A stretch of 64,000 nucleotides of DNA from an uncultured delta proteobacterium (GTDB taxonomy: Bacteria > Myxococcota_A > Polyangia > Polyangiales > Polyangiaceae). The position numbers and the translations under genes are program-made. The notes under the pieces were generated by a model, which saw only the letters and a program-made list of their open reading frames with translations, was not told where the DNA came from and made no database searches. The stretch covers positions 1,184,001 to 1,248,000 of the forward strand of contig CAWJCS010000006.1 of the NCBI GenBank assembly GCA_963841435.1. Reading direction: 5' to 3'. Position 1 is the first letter of the stretch. Each line of letters opens with the position of its first letter. Shown piece after piece: positions 51,260-60,968 of this stretch.

Positions 51260-52359
51260 ACGTGCGCGACAGCGATCCGGATCTGGTGCGCACGTTGCGG
51301 GAGCTCGGCTCGGGTGGTGTCCCCGTCGCGGATGCCGGGCGCGCGGAATACCAGCGCGAGCGCGTCATCCGTGTGATCGGACGTGCGCTCCAAAGCGTGC
51401 GGAGCGCGCACCGCCGCGGCCGGCGCACTTTCGGGATCGTCGCCGCCGCGGCCCTGCTCGCGCTCGCGGTGGGCGGTGCTCGGCTGGCGCTCGGGAGCGG
51501 CACGGAAACCGCCACCGGCGACGTCGCGACGGGCGCCGTGGCGGCGCGCAGCGTCTTCGGCACCGTCACCGTCACGGGAGTCGGCGTGCCCCACGCGGCG
51601 GTGGTGGGTGATCTGTTCCGCGGCGGCGAGGCCGTCACGACGGCCCTCGATTCGAAGATCGATCTCTCGGTCGAGTCCGGCGTCGCCGCTCTCGGCGCGT
51701 CGAGCCATCTCGAGTTCATGACGCCCAATCAGAAGGAGCGGCGCGTGCGGCTCTCGGCCGGGCGCGTCAACGTGGACCTGCCCGTGAAGCTGCGCGGTGG
51801 GCGCCATCTGGTCGTCGAAACCCCGGATGTAGACGTGCTCGTGGTCGGTACCGCGTTCAGCGTGGGTGTGGACCGGCAGGGGACGGAAACGACGACGCGC
51901 GTCAACGTCCAGCGCGGGACGGTCTGGGTCGTGAAGGGTGGCCGGCAAGAAGCGGTGCTGGTTGCTGGTCAGTCGTGGCGTTCCGGGGCGCCCGTTGCCG
52001 CCACGACCACCGCTCCTGCGGAGTCTTCCGCGACGGCGCCGAAAGCCTCCGTTCGGGCGTCGCGGTCGGGCGATTCGGGAACCCTCGCCGACGAAAACCG
52101 AATGTTTCAAGCGGGTCTCTCGGCGCGCAACGCGGGCGACGCCCAGGCTGCCGCCGACGCGTTCGGTGCGTTGCTCGCTCGCTACCCCCGCTCCGTTCTG
52201 GCCGAGCAAGCCCTCGCCGAGCGCTTCCGCGCGCTCGGGCGTGCTGGCAATACTTCGTCGGCCGCGGCCGCGGCACGCCGCTATCTCGCGAGCTACCCCA
52301 GGGGTTTTGCGCGCGTTGAGGCGGAACGGGTCACACGGGGGTCTCTCGGCGCGCGTTGA
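51256..52359 (+). CDS. FecR-domain anti-sigma factor with C-terminal TPR
   Basis: One TM, VETPDVDVLVVGTAFSV FecR motif and YLASYPRG TPR end; overlaps the sigma stop (GTGA). Confidence 0.85.
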   Translation: MNVRDSDPDLVRTLRELGSGGVPVADAGRAEYQRERVIRVIGRALQSVRSAHRRGRRTFGIVAAAALLALAVGGARLALGSGTETATGDVATGAVAARSVFGTVTVTGVGVPHAAVVGDLFRGGEAVTTALDSKIDLSVESGVAALGASSHLEFMTPNQKERRVRLSAGRVNVDLPVKLRGGRHLVVETPDVDVLVVGTAFSVGVDRQGTETTTRVNVQRGTVWVVKGGRQEAVLVAGQSWRSGAPVAATTTAPAESSATAPKASVRASRSGDSGTLADENRMFQAGLSARNAGDAQAAADAFGALLARYPRSVLAEQALAERFRALGRAGNTSSAAAAARRYLASYPRGFARVEAERVTRGSLGAR

Positions 52360-52472
52360 TGAGCCGGGTGCGCGCGCATCGCACATCAGAGCCTGATTGC
52401 GAGAAGCCGAAGTTACTTAGGGGAGCGTGCGTCGGGTGATGACATCCACGTGCCGCCCTAGGAGGCTTCCCG

Positions 52473-53135
52473 ATGAGGTTTATCAACGTTGGTTTTGGTC
52501 TCGTGGTGTCCGGCGCCCTGGCTACGGCAGTCTCCGGATGCGGTGGTGGTGACGACGACGCGAACGCCCCAATCGTGCCGAGCACGGGCGGCAGCTCGGC
52601 CACGGGTGGCAGCTCCGGCACGGGCGGCACCTCCGGCACGAGCACGGGCGGCACGACGAGCACGGGCGGTACGGGTGGCACGCTGAGCACCGGCGGCACG
52701 AGCGGTACCGGTACTGGCGGTACGGGCGGCACATTGAGCACAGGCGGCACGAGCGGCACGGGCGGCACCGCTGGCATGGCGGGCGGCGGTGGTCGCTTCG
52801 GTGGCGACGCTGGCGGCGCCGGTATGGCGGGCGGCGGTGGTCGCTTCGGCGGCGACGCTGGCGGCGCCGGCATGGCTGGTGGCGGTGGTCGCTTCGGCGG
52901 CGACGCCGGTGGCGCCGGCATGGCTGGCGGCGGTGGCCGCATGGGTGGCAACGCTGGCGGCGGTGGCCGCATGGGTGGCAATGCCGGCAACGCTGGCGGC
53001 GGTGGCCGCATGGGTGGCAATGCCGGCAACGCTGGCGGCGGTGGCCGCATGGGTGGCAACGCTGGCGGCGGCGGCCGCATGGGCGGCAACGCTGGCGGCG
53101 CTGGCATGGCCGACGGCGGAACCGCCGGCGCCTGA
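52473..53135 (+). CDS. Gly-rich low-complexity lipoprotein with eight GGGGR[F/M]GG repeats
   Basis: AGGAGG RBS, lipobox VSGC, TGG repeats, then GGGGRFGGDA x3 and GGGGRMGGNA x5. Confidence 0.8.
   Translation: MRFINVGFGLVVSGALATAVSGCGGGDDDANAPIVPSTGGSSATGGSSGTGGTSGTSTGGTTSTGGTGGTLSTGGTSGTGTGGTGGTLSTGGTSGTGGTAGMAGGGGRFGGDAGGAGMAGGGGRFGGDAGGAGMAGGGGRFGGDAGGAGMAGGGGRMGGNAGGGGRMGGNAGNAGGGGRMGGNAGNAGGGGRMGGNAGGGGRMGGNAGGAGMADGGTAGA
52770..53110 (+). repeat. Coding tandem repeats (48-bp units followed by 30/39-bp units)
   Basis: GCTGGCATGGCGGGCGGCGGTGGTCGCTTCGGTGGCGACGCTGGCGGC-type unit x3, then GGCGGCGGTGGCCGCATGGGTGGCAA(C/T) x5. Confidence 0.9.
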
Positions 53136-53234
53136 GCGGTTCAGAGCTCGCGGCGAGCGCGGCGCCGGGGCGGCCCACGCCCCGGCGACGCGTGACGCGG
53201 CTCGAGCCCCCCGAGGGCGACTAAGCTCTTCCCG

Positions 53235-54752
53235 ATGCGGCTCCTGGGTCGCCTGAAGAGCGTTTATCTCGGCGCCGACGAGCGCAGTCTCGCCGCGGGG
53301 CGCATCGCGCTCGCGGTCGTTCTGCTGCTCGATCTCGCGCGCCGCGCGCGCGAGATCGACACCCTCTACTCCAACGATGGGCTCTTGCCGAACCACACGG
53401 TGCTGTGGCGGCCGTCGTCGAGCCACGTCTTCTCTTTCTTCTTCATGGCGTCGCACGGCTACGAGGCGGCGCTCGGCTTCGCGCTCTGTGCGCTCGTCTA
53501 CGCGGGCCTCCTCTTCGGCCATAAAACCCAGTTCTGCCAAGTCGCGAGCCTTCTGTGCGTGCTCAGCCTGCACGGCCGCACGCAATTCGCGCAGAACGGC
53601 GGCGACAACGTGCTCGGCGAGCTCTGCCTGTTCGCGGCGTTCTTGCCGCTGGGGCGTCGCTACGCGCTCGATGCCCGCGAACAGGCCGCCGGGCAGCGCG
53701 ATGTCCGGTCGCTCGCCATGCTCGCGCTACGTCTCCAGATTGCCACGATCTACGCGTTCAACGCGCTGCAGAAGACGGGACCGACCTGGCGCGACGGGAG
53801 CGTCGTCCACTACATGCTGCACCAGGACGGCATCGTCACGATGCTCGGGGCCTGGCTGCGCGACCGGCTCACGCTGGGCGAATCGGCCGTCATGACGCAT
53901 GCGGCGCACGCGATCGAGGCGGCGTTGCCGTTGTTGATCCTGTCTCCGGTCGCCGTGCCCCACGCGCGGCGCCTCGCAGCAGCGCTCATGCTCGCCTTGC
54001 ACGGTGGCTTTGCGCTGGCTCTGAACCTCGGGATCTTCTCCTTCGCGATGCTCGCGTTCGCCCCATTTTTACTGCCGGGGGAGGACATCGAGCGTTTCGT
54101 CGGCTGGCTCGATAGAACTTCGAAGCGCCACCTCGGCGACACGCGACGACGACTCGTCGCATGGCGCGATCGCTTGCCCCAGGTGACTTCGCGAGGGCGT
54201 CCGGCCCGAACGGAGCCGCACCGGCGCCGTGCGCTCGTGCGACTCGGCGAGGTGACGATCGTCGTCATCATGGGCGTGGCCGGTTGCCAGGAGCTGGTCG
54301 ACAACCCCGTCACGGGGGTCGACCTCTCGTGGCGTCCGCGCGCCGTGGGCGTCGCCGTCGATTACCTGCAGATGCTCGAGGCCTGGGCGATGTACGCGCC
54401 CGACGCGCCCACCACCGACACGAACCTCTGGGTCAACGCCGTGACGCGCGACGGCCGCCACGTCGATCCGTTCAACGAGCGGGCGAGCCCCGGCGCACCC
54501 CGCCCGGGCGGCGCGATTCCCGCGCATCTCGGCCAGAGCTGCCTGCTCTACGCCTACGCGCTCCGCATCCCCTACCAGCCGGCGTACCACCGAGCGCTCG
54601 GCGAATGGATCCTGCGTTACCCGGAGCGCACGGGGCACGCCGGGGACGAGATCCGCTCGTTTTCCGTCTACGCCGTCGAGGACGAGAGTCCCCCGCCGGG
54701 AGAGCGCGAGCCACGACGGGCGAAAGCGCGGTTCTTATTCGGCTATCCGTGA
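53235..54752 (+). CDS. HTTM-domain (SdpB/vitamin-K carboxylase-like) membrane protein
   Basis: D.RSLA..RI, YSNDGLLP, NGGD, K.GPTWRDG and C-terminal WAMYAP motifs. Confidence 0.82.
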   Translation: MRLLGRLKSVYLGADERSLAAGRIALAVVLLLDLARRAREIDTLYSNDGLLPNHTVLWRPSSSHVFSFFFMASHGYEAALGFALCALVYAGLLFGHKTQFCQVASLLCVLSLHGRTQFAQNGGDNVLGELCLFAAFLPLGRRYALDAREQAAGQRDVRSLAMLALRLQIATIYAFNALQKTGPTWRDGSVVHYMLHQDGIVTMLGAWLRDRLTLGESAVMTHAAHAIEAALPLLILSPVAVPHARRLAAALMLALHGGFALALNLGIFSFAMLAFAPFLLPGEDIERFVGWLDRTSKRHLGDTRRRLVAWRDRLPQVTSRGRPARTEPHRRRALVRLGEVTIVVIMGVAGCQELVDNPVTGVDLSWRPRAVGVAVDYLQMLEAWAMYAPDAPTTDTNLWVNAVTRDGRHVDPFNERASPGAPRPGGAIPAHLGQSCLLYAYALRIPYQPAYHRALGEWILRYPERTGHAGDEIRSFSVYAVEDESPPPGEREPRRAKARFLFGYP

Positions 54753-54762
54753 CGAGGCGACG

Positions 54763-55827
54763 CTAGTCGGTGTCCCACCAGAAGTAGCTGTGGATGCGAA
54801 ACTCCTGCTCGGGGAGCTTCTTTCCCTCGAGCTCGCCCGCGAAGTGAGCGTCGTAGCTCGACATGGGATTCGCGCGCATCACGAGGCGGCCGCGCAAGGT
54901 GTCCCCGATGTGAACCTCGAGGGGCTTCGCGAAAACGAAGCGCAGCTGCGCCCAGTGCGTGCGTGGCGCGTCGGGCGCCGTGCTCAAAACGACGCGCTCG
55001 GTCGTGCCCTCGAAGGTGACGTCGAACCAGCCGGCGAGCCCGTGAATCGTGCCGGGGTGTGTCGCGACGAACTCGAACGGAAGCACGATCTCGGCGAGGT
55101 CGTCGAGCGGTACCGTGCGAAAGTCGAAGCCGTGCACCACGGGGCTTGCCATGAGCAGGCGGGGAGGGACGAAGCCGAGCGCCGGCATCGCGGAGAGTTC
55201 CTCCGCCGCCACCGACCCGAGGCCCGACAGGTCAACGCCGAAGAAATCGGTCTGCTCCCAGAACTTCTTACGGGAGACGCGGCCCTCGAAAAGCTTCTGA
55301 TCGACGAAGGGGGCGAGCCAGAGCCGACCGGTCGTTGGAAAGAGCGTGCCGCCAGGGCGGAGGAAGCGATCACGCGCGATCAGGAACGCCTCGACCATCC
55401 GCTCGTGGAACAGGAAAAATCCCCACGGCTCCGAGATGATCACGTCGATCGGCTCGGGCATGGAGAGCTCGGCGAGCTGGCCCTTGACGATGACGACCCG
55501 GTCGCTCATGCCATTGTGCTCGAACAGGCGGCGCGCATGCTCGGCCGTTGCCGTTCCCTCGACGGCGTACACCTTGCGAGCGCCGGCGAGCGCCGCGAAC
55601 GCCGACAGGATCCCCGTGCCCGCGCCCACGTCGAGCACGACCTTACCCGCGAAGTCGGCGCGATTGCCGACGATGCCCTGCCGGTAGGCGCCGGTGCGCT
55701 CGCGATCCTCGAGCATCGCCTGTTGGTTCGCGAGGAAGTGGTAGTGGGCCGAATGGACGGCACCCCACTCCGGGAGCACGGGAACGAGCTTGCTCCCGGC
55801 GTCCGGTTTCGGGCTCGAAGACGCCAT
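54763..55827 (-). CDS. Protein arginine N-methyltransferase, CARM1/PRMT4-like
   Basis: QQAMLED..RT..Y, VLDVGAGTG, VYAVE, DVIISEPWGFFLFHERM (double-E loop), FLRPGG, HGLAGWFD and LSTAP..P.THW motifs. Confidence 0.9.
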   Translation of the reverse strand: MASSSPKPDAGSKLVPVLPEWGAVHSAHYHFLANQQAMLEDRERTGAYRQGIVGNRADFAGKVVLDVGAGTGILSAFAALAGARKVYAVEGTATAEHARRLFEHNGMSDRVVIVKGQLAELSMPEPIDVIISEPWGFFLFHERMVEAFLIARDRFLRPGGTLFPTTGRLWLAPFVDQKLFEGRVSRKKFWEQTDFFGVDLSGLGSVAAEELSAMPALGFVPPRLLMASPVVHGFDFRTVPLDDLAEIVLPFEFVATHPGTIHGLAGWFDVTFEGTTERVVLSTAPDAPRTHWAQLRFVFAKPLEVHIGDTLRGRLVMRANPMSSYDAHFAGELEGKKLPEQEFRIHSYFWWDTD

Positions 55828-55850
55828 CGTAGAGCTCTTGGATCGAGGGC

Positions 55851-57170
55851 TCAGCCGCCCTTTGCCGCACAGCGCATGGCGCACTGCAGGTCGCCGGAGG
55901 AACAGCCGCACTTGCTGCGCGGCTTGGCTGGCGCGGCCGCAGGCTCGCTGCCGCCGCTCGTGCTCGAACCCGAGCTCGACGACGACTTCTTCGTGGAGGT
56001 CACGCGGCGAGTCGTGGTCGTCCTCTTTTTCTCGGGCTTGTCGGGTCCCTCGTCGTCCGCCGACCCCGTGGGTGGTGGGGCCGCCGTGAGGGTCGGGGTG
56101 GGGGTCGGCGTTGGTGCTGCTGCCGGGGGAGGAGGCGGCAGTGGCGCCTCGACGACGGGCGGCGGCGGAGCCGGACGCAGGATGACGGCGAGCGCCACGA
56201 TCACGGCGGCGGCGACGATGGCGATGGCGATGAAGAGGCCCGTCTTGCTCTTCTGTGGCGACGCGAGATCCGCCGCCGTGAGCCCGCCGCCGAGCGGTGA
56301 GCCCAGGCCGAGCGGGGCCGAGACGCCGAGCGGCGCCGTGCCGAGCGGTGACATCGCCGGGGCCGCAGTGAGTGGCTGGGCCGCGGCGGCGCCCTCGGAC
56401 TTCACGGCGGCGGCCGTGAGTGCCTTCAGATCGATGAGACCCGAGTCGTCACGGCTCGCGGTCGTGGAGGAGCCGCGTGGAGCCGGCGCCGACCGCGACG
56501 GCGACGACGCCGACGCCAACGTCAGCGCGCTCAGCGAGAACAGCACCGACGACTCATTGCGCGCGCCGGTTGCTCCAGCCAACCCGCCGCCTCCCAATCC
56601 CCCGGGTTCGGGAGCGCTGGTCGCGACGTCCTCCTCGCTGCCGGCGCGGTCGATGCGTCCGAAGAGGTCGCTGCCCGCTGCCCGCGCGGGCCGAGCGGCC
56701 GCTCTCACGGGGCTTGGTTGGGGCGGCGGCGCTTCGGACTTGGCTTCCCAGGGCGATGCCGCGGGGGCCGGCGCCGCTTGCGCGTGGCCTGCCGCCGCGT
56801 GCAGCGCTTCCACGATCTCGTCAACCTCGGACAGCGCCTTCCAATCCTCGAAGCCGTCTGCCCAAACGTACGTTTCGCCCGTGATCTGGCCTGCATTGTA
56901 GGCTGCAACGATCTCGGCGACCGGCATCGTGCGCTGATCGCCGTCACCGAGGTCCACCGAATACTCAGGGCCTGTTTCCGCCTGTTCGCTCATGGGATGC
57001 TCTTCTGCCGGTTCCCCGCCCGTTGAAGCCGTGACGGACGGAGGGTTCACCTTACCGTCGATGACGATGGTCGCGCCGCACTTGCGGCAGCGGATCTTCG
57101 CCAGCCGAGACACCACCTTCTCGTCGGAGATGGAGTACTTCGCGGAGCAGGAGGGACAACTTATCTTCAC
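55851..57170 (-). CDS. Zinc-ribbon + GYF_2 domain membrane protein (AgmX/GltJ-like)
   Basis: CPSC...CRKC, TYVWADGFEDW, RNESSVLFSL, TM helix, Pro-rich stalk and 4-Cys C-terminus. Confidence 0.8.
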   Translation of the reverse strand: MKISCPSCSAKYSISDEKVVSRLAKIRCRKCGATIVIDGKVNPPSVTASTGGEPAEEHPMSEQAETGPEYSVDLGDGDQRTMPVAEIVAAYNAGQITGETYVWADGFEDWKALSEVDEIVEALHAAAGHAQAAPAPAASPWEAKSEAPPPQPSPVRAAARPARAAGSDLFGRIDRAGSEEDVATSAPEPGGLGGGGLAGATGARNESSVLFSLSALTLASASSPSRSAPAPRGSSTTASRDDSGLIDLKALTAAAVKSEGAAAAQPLTAAPAMSPLGTAPLGVSAPLGLGSPLGGGLTAADLASPQKSKTGLFIAIAIVAAAVIVALAVILRPAPPPPVVEAPLPPPPPAAAPTPTPTPTLTAAPPPTGSADDEGPDKPEKKRTTTTRRVTSTKKSSSSSGSSTSGGSEPAAAPAKPRSKCGCSSGDLQCAMRCAAKGG

Positions 57171-57482: not shown

Positions 57483-58146
57483 TCAAGGCTCGCCCTCCGG
57501 CCCCCGGCCCAGCCGGGAAAGGGCGGTCAGCGCGGCGATTCGCTCGGCGAGCTCCGGATTTTCGCCGTCCTCGGCACGCAATGCACGAAACAACTCGTGC
57601 GTCGCGGCCGCGAGATCGCCTTCGGTGATTCGCGCTTCCGCGCGCTTGGCGTAGAGCTTCGCCGCCTTCGAACGGCAGAGCTCGTCGAGTGAACGAGCTC
57701 CCGTGTCGGCCCGATCGGCCGTCGTGCCGTCGGAGTCAACATCGAGCCGGAGCTCGCCCTTCGCGAGGGCGAGATCGTAGGCCGCGCGACGCTCCGGCAC
57801 GATGAGCGCCTGGTACGCCTCGACGCCCCGCCGGAAGACTCGCAGGGCAATCCGACGCGCAGCGTCATCGCCGCGCGACTGGGCGTCGGGGTGGAACGCC
57901 AGGGAAAATTCGTGGAACGCGCTTCGGATCGCGTCGGCGTCCGCAATCTCGAGGACGCCGAGGATCTCGTAGTAGCTCGCGTCGTCGAGCACGCCGTCCC
58001 ACGCCATCAGGTGCGCGAGATTCGAGCGACGCCGCGTCCTCGGCGGGCTCGAGAGGATCGAAGCCGGCGTCGGGTGACGGCTCGATGGGCGGCCGGCTCG
58101 AGCCCGGACCAGCGCCGTCGTCGCCCGCATCGTTTGCTTCGCTCAT
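57483..58146 (-). CDS. J-domain protein (probable frameshift ~58020 in the N-terminal part)
   Basis: YYEILGV...FHPD...EAY..L....RRAAYD; adjacent to the Hsp70 gene. Confidence 0.8.
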
Positions 58147-58163: not shown

Positions 58164-60420
58164 TCAACCGGTGCGCTGGGCGGCGTGACGCGCTGCGAGG
58201 CCGGCGACGTGTTCGGGCTCGGGAATGGCGACCATGTGGACCTTCGCCAACGTCTCTCGCCCGGTCTGCACGTCGCGTGCGCTCACCTCGAGCAGACCGT
58301 CCGTGTCGAGCGCGAAAGTCACCGCGACCTCCACCGTGCCGCGCGAGCCTGCGCGCAGACCCGTGAGCTCGAGCTCTCCGAGCAACGTGTTTTCAGCGAA
58401 CCGACTCGACTCGCCCTGACCGATGCGCACTCGTACAATCGTCTGGTTGTCGGATGCCGTGACGAAGTTTCGTCGCTTGCTGCAGGGCACGGGCGTGTTG
58501 CGAGCGATCAACGAGTCGGAGTAACCGCCGATGGTCTCGACGGAGAGCGTGAGCGGCGTCACGTCGATGAGCACGGGAGGTGGAGCCGCGAGCGGCATGG
58601 GGGCGGGCGCTGGGAGCGGAGCGGTGAGCGCTGCGGCCGCCGCCGCGGGAGCGGGCACCGAGGGCAGCGGGGGACCGGCGTCCGCGGGCGGCGGCATGGG
58701 CGGTGCGGGGCCGACCCGCGTGGGAGCGTCGTCGGGCACCTCGGGAAGCGGCAAGGACGCTTCGTCGAGATCCTCGAGCTCGGCGGGCTCGAGTAGCTCG
58801 ATGTCGTGGACGCTCGTCGAGGCCGGCGGAGGGGGTGGGGGCGGCGGAGGGGGCGGAGGTAGAGGTAGGGGCGGTAGCCGTGGCGCTGCGCGCCCAGGGG
58901 TGTCCGGTGGAGACAGCGGTGGCGCGAGCGCTGCCGTGCGGGCCGCGTCGCCGAGGCCGCTGCCGGTCTTCGTCCGCGCGCGGGCGCCGAGGCCGAGCAG
59001 CGTCGACCCTTCACGGTGCGTCGGGGTCTCGGGCGTGAGCGCCGCGGGCGGCTGCGCAACGCCCGGTCGCGTCACCATGCCGCGGCGTGGCTCGAACGGC
59101 TTGGTCTCGGGTGCGACCTCGCCCTCGGCCACCATGCTGCTCAGCCTGACGCGCCCGGGTTCGGCGGGGCCGCCGCTCGCGTCGCCGCTCGGTCGCGTCG
59201 TGCGCGCGACGCCGCGCTGCGTGTTCGCAAGGCGTGCAGGCACCGGCGGCGCGGGCACCGGGGCGCGTCGCCGCTCCGTTCCCGAAAGCGCGCTCGCCTG
59301 AATCGCGGCGCCCACCGCGACGACCTCGTCGGGGCTGACGTGGTGGTTTCCTTCGCGGCGGAAGAATTCCTCCACGCGCCGGCGAACGAGGGGAATTCGT
59401 GTCGACCCGCCGACCAGCAGCACCTGATCGAGGTCGGTCACGGAGAGCCGCGCCACGCCGAGCGCCTCGCGGCAAACGTCGAACGTCTGATCGACGATCG
59501 GCGCGATCGTGATCTCGAGCTCGCCCCGCGTCATCTCGAAGTTGAAATCGATCGAGCGCCCGTCGGGACCGTGCACGACGTCCTCCATCGAGACGCTCGC
59601 GGAGTCGTCCGTCGAACAGGCGCTGCTTCAGATCCTCGGCGGCAATCCGGAAGCGGTCGAACAGCACCGGGTCGGTGCGCACGTCGTAGCGGTGCTTGCG
59701 GAGGAAGAGCTCCGCCATGCGCTCGGCGATCGCGACGTCGATGTCGTCGCCGCCGAGGAACGTGTTGCCGGCCGTCGCGAGCACCTCGAAAACGTTGTTC
59801 GACAGATCGAGCAAGGTCACGTCGAACGTGCCGCCGCCGAAATCGTAGACGGCGATGCGCTCGGCGCTGTCCTTGCCGTAGCCGTACGCAAGCGCGGCGG
59901 CCGTGGGCTCGTTGAGGATGCGCAGCACCTCGAGTCCCGCGACGCGTCCGGCCACCTTCGTGGCGGCACGTTGCAGGTCGTTGAAATTTGCCGGCACGGT
60001 GATGACGGCCTGCTCGACGGGCACTCCGAGCGCGGCCTCGGCCACGGTCTTCGCCTTACGCAGCACGAACGCGCTGATCTCGGGCAGCGTGTAGGTTTCG
60101 CCGCGCGCGAACACGAGCGTGGACTGGCCGGGGCCCTCGCGCATCTCGAAGGGCAAGCGCGAACGCGCGCGCCGGACCTCCTCGGTGTCCCAGCTGCGTC
60201 CGATGAGCCGCTTGACCGAGTAGATCGTGCTCCCGGGGTCGATGATGCGGCGATCCTTGGCCGTGCGTCCGACGAGCACGCTGCCGTTCGGGTGGAAGGA
60301 CACCACCGAGGGAATCAGCGTGTTTTCCCGCTCGTCCGGCAGTGGCTGAGCTTCGCCGTCCCGAACGGCCGCGACGACGGTGTTGGTCGTCCCGAGGTCG
60401 ATGCCGACGACCTCGCTCAC
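58164..60420 (-). CDS. Hsp70/DnaK-family paralogue with Pro-rich insertion (frameshift ~59615)
   Basis: GIDLGTTN, TVPANF, NEPTAAA, DFGGGTFD, VGGSTRIP and DVTPLTL motifs across ORFs 59011..60870 and 58164..59588. Confidence 0.92.
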
Positions 60421-60968
60421 GACCGTACCCCCGCTTCGATCTCGATCTCGCGAAGCACGGCGTCGTACCAACGCGCGATCGTCCCTTCGAACGGCCACAT
60501 CCAGCCGTAGGCGCCGCCCGTGAAGCGTTCGACGATGGTCTTGCGAAGCGACGGCGAGCGCGCGCTCTCGAGCCCGCGCAGGTGTGCCGTCGCGCGCAGC
60601 GTCTCGCGATAGGCTTCCCACTCGAGCCGCGCGCGACCGTACGCGAGCCCGATGGGGAAGAACGGGACGAGGTAGACGAATGCCATCAAGGCAAGGCCGT
60701 AGCGTCGGCGCTGGCGGAGGTGGACGCGCTCGTGGTGGAGCACGATCGCGCGGTCGATGTCGGGTGTGTCGTCCCAGGCGAACGGCGTGTAGAGCGTGTA
60801 GCCGAGCACGGTGTGGTAGCGGGTGAGGTACTCGCGCTGTGCCCCGAGCGTGAGGACGCGCAACAACCAATCGATGGCGACCGAGAGTGGGTCGCCACGC
60901 TTGGGCACGAGTCGGAATGCGGGGAATTCCTCCGTGATTTCAGCGATCAAGCCCTCGGCGAGCGCCAC
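60417..60968 (-). CDS. Hypothetical protein with HExxH (zincin-like) motif
   Basis: VLHHERVHLRQ followed by a hydrophobic segment and EWEAY. Confidence 0.6.
   Translation of the reverse strand: MALAEGLIAEITEEFPAFRLVPKRGDPLSVAIDWLLRVLTLGAQREYLTRYHTVLGYTLYTPFAWDDTPDIDRAIVLHHERVHLRQRRRYGLALMAFVYLVPFFPIGLAYGRARLEWEAYRETLRATAHLRGLESARSPSLRKTIVERFTGGAYGWMWPFEGTIARWYDAVLREIEIEAGVRS

Follow-up and report, generated by a model that had tools for sequence, protein, structure and literature searches.

The stretch of DNA analysed here, referred to throughout as the window, comprises 64,000 nucleotides (C6:1184001-1248000) of the 7,783,927-base, 6-contig genome (completeness 95%, contamination 2.7%) of an uncultured delta proteobacterium of the Polyangiaceae, a soil myxobacterium. 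It harbors, as a single copy in this genome, a gene for a protein arginine methyltransferase (PRMT) of the CARM1/PRMT4 subfamily. The gene lies on the reverse strand, between a convergent gene for an HTTM-domain membrane protein and a co-oriented upstream gene for a membrane protein with a Zn ribbon and a GYF domain (ZnR/GYF), beyond which genes for DnaJ-like and Hsp70-like proteins are found. Its reading frame is intact, with zero introns. A longer open reading frame (ORF), starting from a GTG at 55911 (382 aa), was considered and discarded, because it overlaps the upstream gene and the N-termini of the orthologues align with the ATG start.

When the ORF was translated, every PRMT element that the first-pass annotation had named was recovered at the position given there (Table 1). 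In addition to the elements listed in the table, these include the N-terminal helix segment QQAMLEDRERTGAY (residues 35-48) and the sequence HGLAGWFD (residues 262-269); the arm sequence FWEQTDFFGVDLS occupies residues 189-201. Among the 77 members of the clade described below, R44, E133, E142, T290, H291 and W292 are kept in 76-77 (E133 in 76, with one gap, and E142 in all 77), and position 90 is Glu in 66 and Asp in 11. In PRMTs, this acidic residue of post-I binds the ribose of S-adenosylmethionine (SAM). The SAM site and the arginine clamp are intact, a dimer arm is present, and the 77 relatives show purifying conservation. The enzyme is apparently an active copy of the CARM1/PRMT4 family, by which arginines of proteins are methylated in animals and fungi.

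Table 1. Coordinates of the PRMT gene, its sequence elements and the neighboring genes in the window
Feature	Position	Strand	Start, stop or frame	Evidence
CARM1-type protein arginine methyltransferase CDS (P0001, 354 aa)	54763..55827	-	stop TAG 54763-54765; ATG 55825-55827	profile, PDB-sequence and fold matches
Motif I VLDVGAGTG, SAM-binding glycine loop, residues 64-72	55612..55638	-		V64, D66, G68, G70, G72 invariant, 29-row alignment
Post-I VYAVE, residues 86-90	55558..55572	-		Y87, A88, E90 invariant, 29-row alignment
Double-E loop EPWGFFLFHE, residues 133-142, contains Trp135	55402..55431	-		clade conservation counts
Dimerisation arm, residues 186-214, includes FWEQTDFFGVDLS	55186..55272	-		contacts residues 71-105 of second copy (predicted dimer)
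THW loop in beta-barrel, residues 290-292	54952..54960	-		T, H, W each in 77/77 clade members
Zn-ribbon (MJ0042-type) + GYF_2 + one transmembrane helix + Pro-rich tail, upstream gene	55851..57170	-	likely start GTG 57170, as in orthologues	
HTTM-domain membrane protein, convergent to PRMT	53235..54752	+		domain match; layout recurrence; indel
Gly-rich lipoprotein, GGGGR[FM]GG repeats, between FecR-like gene and HTTM	52473..53135	+		ORF and orthologue comparison
J-domain protein of conserved row	57483..58130	-		domain match; row recurrence
Hsp70-like gene of conserved row	58164..60432	-	frame change between 59617 and 59603	row recurrence

The first-pass annotation had noticed sequence blocks that track CARM1, and profile, sequence and fold comparisons all favored CARM1/PRMT4. 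The Pfam PRMT_C domain was matched over residues 168-323 with 81.6 bits (cut-off 27; E 8.3e-23), together with generic class I methyltransferase domains. In a sequence search of the Protein Data Bank (PDB), the best 21 rows were all CARM1 catalytic cores (299-301 bits, E about 1e-88 (1.3e-88), residues 27-333), followed by 3r0q with 189 bits and by PRMT6, PRMT2 and PRMT1 with 175-178 bits. The E values for PRMT_C and for the CARM1 cores put the family match far beyond chance. An AlphaFold2 model built on an alignment of 29 rows (mean pLDDT 93.5, pTM 0.89) contained a helix-loop-helix at residues 177-213 and the strands of a beta-barrel at residues 216-344. The best 41 Foldseek matches of this model in the PDB were again all CARM1 (TM 0.88-0.92, rmsd 1.2-1.6 Å), and PRMT2, PRMT6 and PRMT1 came after them (TM 0.79-0.83, rmsd 2.4-4.5 Å). 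The PRMT_C match and the modeled barrel also bear out the earlier view that the whole PRMT layout is present, and not just a SAM fold. In a maximum-likelihood tree, the protein falls on the CARM1-family side of a branch that separates the PRMT6-like outgroup with a support of 100/99. The double-E loop of the SEP-x-G type follows the same division: Pro134 is retained in 76 of the 77 clade rows and in 114 of 135 other CARM1-family rows, while 11 of the 16 rows of the PRMT6-like outgroup have Trp at this position. With an identity of 42-48% to eukaryotic CARM1 cores, the window protein belongs to the CARM1/PRMT4 subfamily specifically, as a type I-style PRMT with a complete catalytic core.

The earlier description of a complete CARM1 holds for this catalytic core and does not extend to the flanking domains of the animal enzyme. 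Both the N-terminal PH-like domain (Pfam PF11531) and the C-terminal activation domain are absent, with only 26 residues before the core and 20 after it. Since these domains are also missing from the fungal, Fonticula and stramenopile homologues, they are marks of animal CARM1 and not of the subfamily. PrmA and small-molecule methyltransferases were examined as alternative assignments and rejected, CARM1 being the best match in the profile, sequence and fold comparisons alike. The NCBIfam prmA model reached 34.6 bits against a cut-off of 183 over residues 57-132 only, the Pfam PrmA match covered residues 60-132, and the matches to small-molecule methylases were confined to the Rossmann part and far under their cut-offs.

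The first-pass annotation had also pointed to an arm-like segment and suggested a structure prediction of the dimer, and the prediction yielded a ring homodimer with arm contacts. For two copies of the protein, the ipSAE was 0.82, compared with 0.00 for the best control; of 30 proteins solved as pairs, 20 attained the mark set for this score, as did 1 of 23 solved as single chains. The dimer runs had at least 83% of their contacts in common, with a pLDDT of the partner of at least 88. In the predicted interface, the arm (residues 186-214) of one copy packs against residues 71-105 of the other, that is, arm to Rossmann domain, and a ring-type head-to-tail homodimer is predicted. As CARM1 dimers have been solved, this result may reflect likeness to them rather than providing independent proof.

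A homology search with the window protein returned at least 2,870 proteins at E<=0.001 among 8,000 scored candidates. Among the best 120, the first were proteins of approximately 340-390 aa from metagenomes and metagenome-assembled genomes (MAGs), 52-68% identical to the window protein, followed by shorter bacterial-type proteins and eukaryotic proteins with 45-49% identity. In a FastTree phylogeny of 238 rows, the window protein was recovered in a group of 77 members with a support of 1.0. This clade is distinguished by the residue after SEP in the double-E loop, which is Trp in 71 members, Leu in five and a gap in one, whereas Trp was found there in none of the 145 other CARM1-family rows and none of the 16 outgroup rows. 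The sister bacterial group (10 rows) has Met (7) or Leu (3), the other 135 CARM1-family rows have Met (85), Ile (31), Leu (16), Val (2) or Phe (1), and the PRMT6-like outgroup has Met (10), Leu (5) or Arg (1). Trp135 is a substitution within the CARM1 family in which the loop itself is retained, and the Met-to-Trp change noticed earlier in SEPMG is a real and conserved trait of the clade. This position of the pocket has been linked to product specificity in PRMTs. Many of the relatives bear the automatic label 'histone-arginine methyltransferase CARM1' at JGI and 'class I SAM-dependent methyltransferase' at NCBI. When 10 metagenome proteins near the clade were looked up by exact match, an organism name was obtained for only two clusters, one being Paramicrosporidium. 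The other is a protein of the CARM1 family (P0204) labeled 'Nitrososphaerales archaeon'; it comes from a contig of 1,381 bp, so its binning is doubtful.

Our comparisons further indicated that the PRMT gene is native to the Polyangiaceae chromosome. Its G + C content at codon positions 1, 2 and 3 is 0.68, 0.46 and 0.87, and at the third position (GC3) the adjacent genes range from 0.80 to 0.91. A scan with one genome per species identified 11 related loci with proteins 54-68% identical to the window protein, ten in Polyangiaceae MAGs and one in an uncultured delta proteobacterium. Five of the 11 (L013, L015, L020, L022 and L023) share the row Hsp70-like, DnaJ-like, ZnR/GYF and PRMT, and the convergent HTTM gene is present in all four of these five loci that have enough flanking sequence. 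In the two loci with longer flanks (L013 and L022), the row goes on into genes for a FecR-like protein and an ECF sigma factor. The PRMT proteins of the row-sharing genomes are 58-66% identical, which lies within the range of their flanking genes (50-80%), as expected for joint vertical descent. The spacer of 23 nt to the co-oriented upstream gene, reported by the first-pass annotation, was reproduced (upstream TGA at 55851-55853), and in the syntenic loci the PRMT gene likewise starts 23-30 nt behind the ZnR/GYF gene. From the 23-nt spacing, the two genes are probably co-transcribed. In one search for sequencing runs that contain the stretch, no RNA run was found, and the only hit was a DNA run from a soil metagenome, in which 0.08 of the words were present.

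The history of the locus could be followed in four congeners that have no PRMT gene (G323, G428, G337 and G399; L043-L046), which were compared with positions 52360-55850 of the window. All four keep both flanks, with orf310, the sigma factor gene and the FecR-like gene on one side and the ZnR/GYF, DnaJ-like and Hsp70-like genes on the other; in three of them the row continues via a small ORF and fmt to a Lon-like gene, and in G323 the contig ends earlier. The gap between the FecR-like and ZnR/GYF genes is less than 300 bp in three congeners and contains only a lipoprotein gene in G323, and at E 1e-8 no remnants of HTTM or PRMT were found between the FecR-like and ZnR/GYF genes in any of the four. 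The HTTM and PRMT genes form a pair that was gained or lost as a unit. The surroundings of the HTTM orthologues in G323 and G399 differ from those in the window. The sigma factors of the PRMT-bearing genomes are 77-80% identical to each other, versus 56-71% to those of the PRMT-less genomes, and this closeness of the flanking genes fits one gain in a subclade, although the pair may instead have been lost in the others.

Among the neighboring genes, the ZnR/GYF gene has orthologues in all five congeners searched, none of which has the PRMT gene. The Zn ribbon of its product matches the first 53 positions of the gliding-motility model GltJ with 54 bits (cut-off 450); judged by these domain matches, the protein is GltJ-like in architecture and is not GltJ. 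Its disordered linker is conserved and contains several invariant arginines (R156, R163, R172, R204 and R240), with the stretch RAAA[RK]P[AV]R among them, and a Pro-rich outer tail follows the single transmembrane helix. The Gly-rich lipoprotein gene, two genes from PRMT in the window, has counterparts in L013 (5994-6653, reverse strand) and L022 (8681-9406, reverse strand). In its product, a signal peptide and a lipobox precede GGDDD, and there are tandem GGGGR[FMVT]GG repeats similar to the glycine-arginine-rich motifs of eukaryotes. A Pro-rich ORF with PPMRPPPP repeats on the reverse strand (52331-53107) was considered as a PGM-like CARM1 substrate and rejected as an antisense frame of this lipoprotein gene, because the signal peptide and lipobox on the other strand are conserved in L013 and L022 and the Pro-rich frame is not conserved in L022. 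In the Hsp70-like gene, the frame shifts by one base between the part for the ATPase domain and the rest, by comparison with the intact 806-aa orthologue of L015; the change, at 59603-59617, would be either a real frameshift or an assembly error. In L014 (7064-8143, reverse strand), the CARM1-type gene is followed by a convergent gene for a second class I methyltransferase, which has 41% identity to residues 61-148 of the window protein but no match to PRMT_C.

The CARM1 type is sparsely distributed in bacteria. With the window protein as the query (E<=1e-70), it was detected in two of 400 other genomes sampled from the order, one of them among 13 other species of the same genus and the other in another genus of the family. 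With P0083 of the sister bacterial group as the query (E<=1e-60), it was found in none of 400 other genomes sampled from the phylum, while the window's own genome was matched at 8e-103. On the other hand, a PRMT6/1-like paralogue, 29-39% identical to the window protein, was found in 27 of 100 genomes from this bacterial family, which argues against the earlier remark that PRMTs are characteristic of eukaryotes. One such paralogue (L002) matched PRMT6 with 186 bits and CARM1 with 132 bits and had more than 1,000 bacterial and metagenome relatives. The public labels within this PRMT6/1-like family (L002-L012) include L11 methyltransferase, precorrin methylase, RNA methylase and prmt6. PRMT folds are common in Myxococcota, and the CARM1 type is the rare one.

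To place the bacterial proteins among eukaryotic ones, a homology search with the Fonticula protein was used, which retrieved named CARM1-family proteins from animals, a plant, chytrids, Mucoromycota, Rozella, oomycetes and other stramenopiles. From 493 proteins, 92 rows were selected, with partial rows kept. Of these, 15 belonged to the window clade and 8 to the sister bacterial group; the others were 31 named eukaryotes, 28 unnamed proteins and 10 bacterial PRMT6-like proteins as the outgroup. The root consists of bacterial PRMT6-like proteins only, as the L002 search gave only bacterial and metagenome relatives; the tree includes no named eukaryotic PRMT1 or PRMT6. In the careful tree (IQ-TREE, LG+C20+F+G4 PMSF; bootstrap not fully settled), the two bacterial groups were joined (23 rows, 100/99) and lay inside a clade of 51 rows (100/97) that also includes Rozella, Paramicrosporidium, Fonticula, chytrids and Mucoromycota and is distinct from the animal-plant and stramenopile clades. 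Because of this best tree and the distribution described above, we favor a transfer of a core-only CARM1 gene from a eukaryote to a bacterium, which may then have spread within Polyangiaceae, although the direction is not statistically secured.

Taking these results as a whole, we consider it likely that the product of the gene is a SAM-dependent protein arginine N-methyltransferase of the CARM1/PRMT4 subfamily, cytoplasmic and homodimeric, consisting of the core only and probably of eukaryotic origin. The core comprises the N-terminal helices, the Rossmann domain, the dimerisation arm and the beta-barrel. By analogy with solved CARM1, SAM would be bound by the Rossmann domain through motif I, E90 of post-I and R44, and the guanidinium group of the substrate would be held between E133 and E142 of the double-E loop and His291 of the THW loop. 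Two subunits would close into a head-to-tail ring, with each arm resting on the Rossmann domain of the other. The gene is a stably inherited and expressed-looking part of the Polyangiaceae chromosome, probably co-transcribed with that of the GltJ-like Zn-ribbon/GYF membrane protein, and would descend from a core-only CARM1 gene acquired from a eukaryote, on the fungal or holomycotan side, and then spread within Polyangiaceae. The enzyme may methylate arginines of cytoplasmic bacterial proteins. CARM1 prefers proline-flanked arginines, and such residues may be the targets here as well; the first candidates would be the upstream protein, in its disordered linker, and the partners of that protein. 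Eukaryotic HSP70 is a substrate of CARM1 and PRMT7; the Hsp70-like protein of the row was considered as a target, as a lead only, and set aside, as the Hsp70 and DnaJ genes are in the same place in congeners without PRMT.

Several observations weigh against parts of this reading. The link of the PRMT to the ZnR/GYF protein rests on adjacency in five of the 11 related loci, and in the other six (L014, L016-L019 and L021) the PRMT gene has other neighbors. Judged by the indel, the convergent HTTM gene is linked to the PRMT gene no less closely than the upstream one is, and the HTTM protein is an equally linked neighbor with no obvious connection to the PRMT. Type I PRMTs produce monomethylarginine and asymmetric dimethylarginine on proteins. 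That Trp in place of the pocket Met would narrow the pocket and shift the product, perhaps toward monomethylarginine, is pure inference. As for the origin, a tree in which the 31 named eukaryotes were held together against the bacteria and the outgroup was only 6.98 lnL worse (p-AU 0.268 in the approximately unbiased, AU, test), and against the quick tree the eukaryotes-together tree was better (p 0.767). Moreover, many rows near the bacterial clade are metagenome proteins without an assigned domain of life. Nesting inside the eukaryotes had been suggested by the quick tree and is not claimed here, as the AU tests did not reject the alternative.

These AU tests, in which eukaryote monophyly with the bacteria outside is not rejected, also bear on an opposite history, in which the bacterial clade descends from the stock that gave eukaryotes their CARM1, or both inherited an older gene. 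The PRMT6/1-like paralogues in more than a quarter of the sampled genomes of the family would agree with it, and a review traces eukaryotic PRMTs to a bacterial radiation (PMC3417536). We nevertheless regard this history as rather unlikely, since the CARM1 type is rare and patchy at every level sampled (2/400 in the order, 0/400 in the phylum, 1/13 other species of the genus), the PRMT gene sits in a two-gene indel, and the best tree nests the clade among holomycotan sequences. If the acquisition from a eukaryote is accepted, a more specific proposal can be made, that a fungus-like CARM1 was domesticated in Polyangiaceae as a two-gene mobile unit with HTTM, settled behind the GltJ-like ZnR/GYF gene, had its product altered by the Met-to-Trp change and became a regulatory switch on bacterial proteins, acting for instance at proline-flanked arginines that the GYF domain recognizes; as a whole this chain is doubtful. 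Polyangiaceae are soil predators or degraders, and the enzyme might instead be an effector that the bacterium delivers into fungal, amoebal or other eukaryotic cells, there to methylate histone H3 or RNA-binding proteins. Its identity to eukaryotic CARM1 cores and its wholly kept substrate-side architecture would suit such a use, and predicted PRMTs of Legionella, of unknown function, are listed in a review (PMC10117894) among methyltransferases that may target hosts. This role appears improbable, however: the translated N-terminus contains no signal-like or hydrophobic stretch, the 23-nt spacing makes co-transcription with an inner-membrane ZnR/GYF gene probable, in a row that also contains chaperone-like genes and fmt, the 44-64 kb examined showed no genes for a secretion system, and the replacement of the pocket Met by Trp throughout most of the clade points to adaptation away from the eukaryotic enzyme and not to mimicry.

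Two further explanations question the activity or the gene itself. The weak PrmA-type matches over the Rossmann part could be taken as a sign that the enzyme, with its PRMT fold, does not methylate protein arginine but has a different target, for example a small molecule, a ribosomal protein or a natural product of peptide type. We consider this highly improbable, as both glutamates, the THW loop and the residues of the N-terminal helix are kept in nearly every clade member, no biosynthetic genes lie nearby, and the PrmA match is both short and far below its cut-off. Finally, the eukaryote-like best matches, and these only, might speak for a eukaryotic fragment mis-assembled into a bacterial contig, as a contaminant or chimeric join. 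Yet the GC3 resembles that of the neighbors, the frame is intact without introns, the same junctions with bacterial genes recur in five independent MAGs, and 76 related bacterial-type proteins are present in metagenomes. Together with the syntenic flanks of the congeners and the same layout in five other Polyangiaceae MAGs, these points uphold the first-pass judgment that the gene is native, and they refute contamination as far as sequence comparison can, leaving it a negligible probability.

The proposed enzyme can be compared with several known systems. With the CARM1/PRMT4 core of mouse and human (e.g., PDB 5lkj, 3b3f and 5dx1), it shares 42-44% identity over about 335 columns, at the TM and rmsd values given above, together with the domain order (N-terminal helices, Rossmann domain, arm, barrel), the SEP-x-G loop, THW, the QQ-x-M-x-D-x-x-RT helix and, in the prediction, the ring dimer. 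Apart from the missing flanking domains, it differs from this core in the tail, which ends in YFWWD where the animal segment is PFFRY, and in having Trp for the pocket Met and His for the Asn before the second Glu, the latter as in many non-animal homologues; moreover, its gene is bacterial, free of introns and part of an operon. Holomycota and stramenopiles (Fonticula alba, Rozella allomycis, chytrids and oomycetes) have core-only CARM1 homologues that are likewise short (approximately 350-460 aa) and single-domain, with His before the second Glu as in the window protein. Their identity in the 29-row alignment is 38-42%, and they are the closest named neighbors in the tree; unlike the window protein, they keep Met, Ile or Leu in the pocket and are encoded by eukaryotic nuclear genes. 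The second bacterial CARM1-like group (P0080-P0092 and P0122, with one Deltaproteobacteria MAG) is sister to the window clade, with 45-49% identity, Met or Leu in the pocket, a longer C-terminal tail and no occurrence in the 400 genomes sampled from the phylum.

More distant are the PRMT6/PRMT1-like proteins of Myxococcota (e.g., L002), which share the fold and the catalytic motifs and are present in this bacterial family too, but have a SEW-type double-E loop and form the outgroup in all trees; the other type I PRMTs also have a SEW-x-G loop where the window protein has SEP-x-G. PrmA, the ribosomal protein L11 methyltransferase, shares the class I Rossmann SAM fold, although a match to PrmA leaves the C-terminal PRMT domain of the window protein unexplained and scores far below the match to CARM1.

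As bacterial PRMT homologues were already known, the surprise lies in the CARM1-specific affinity and not in finding a PRMT fold in bacteria. A bacterial CARM1-type enzyme is interesting without being unprecedented. What is new here is a bacterial core-only CARM1 clade with a conserved pocket Trp and its own genomic setting, in other words, a bacterial enzyme whose assignment goes beyond the PRMT fold to one particular eukaryotic paralogue, CARM1. Full-text searches of the literature found no paper on a CARM1-type enzyme in myxobacteria, and neither the JGI nor the NCBI label states the role of the protein in the bacterium. In eukaryotes, the methylation of arginines by PRMTs serves as a central regulatory mark; to our knowledge, it is almost unexplored in bacteria. 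The clade raises the questions of whether the Trp changes the type of product and in which direction PRMT genes have moved between Myxococcota and eukaryotes. If the domestication outlined above were true, it would represent the first eukaryote-style arginine-methylation switch in bacteria built from a eukaryotic enzyme. In either case, a CARM1-type enzyme in a cell without chromatin or a spliceosome offers a bacterial system in which to ask what its role may be outside eukaryotes.

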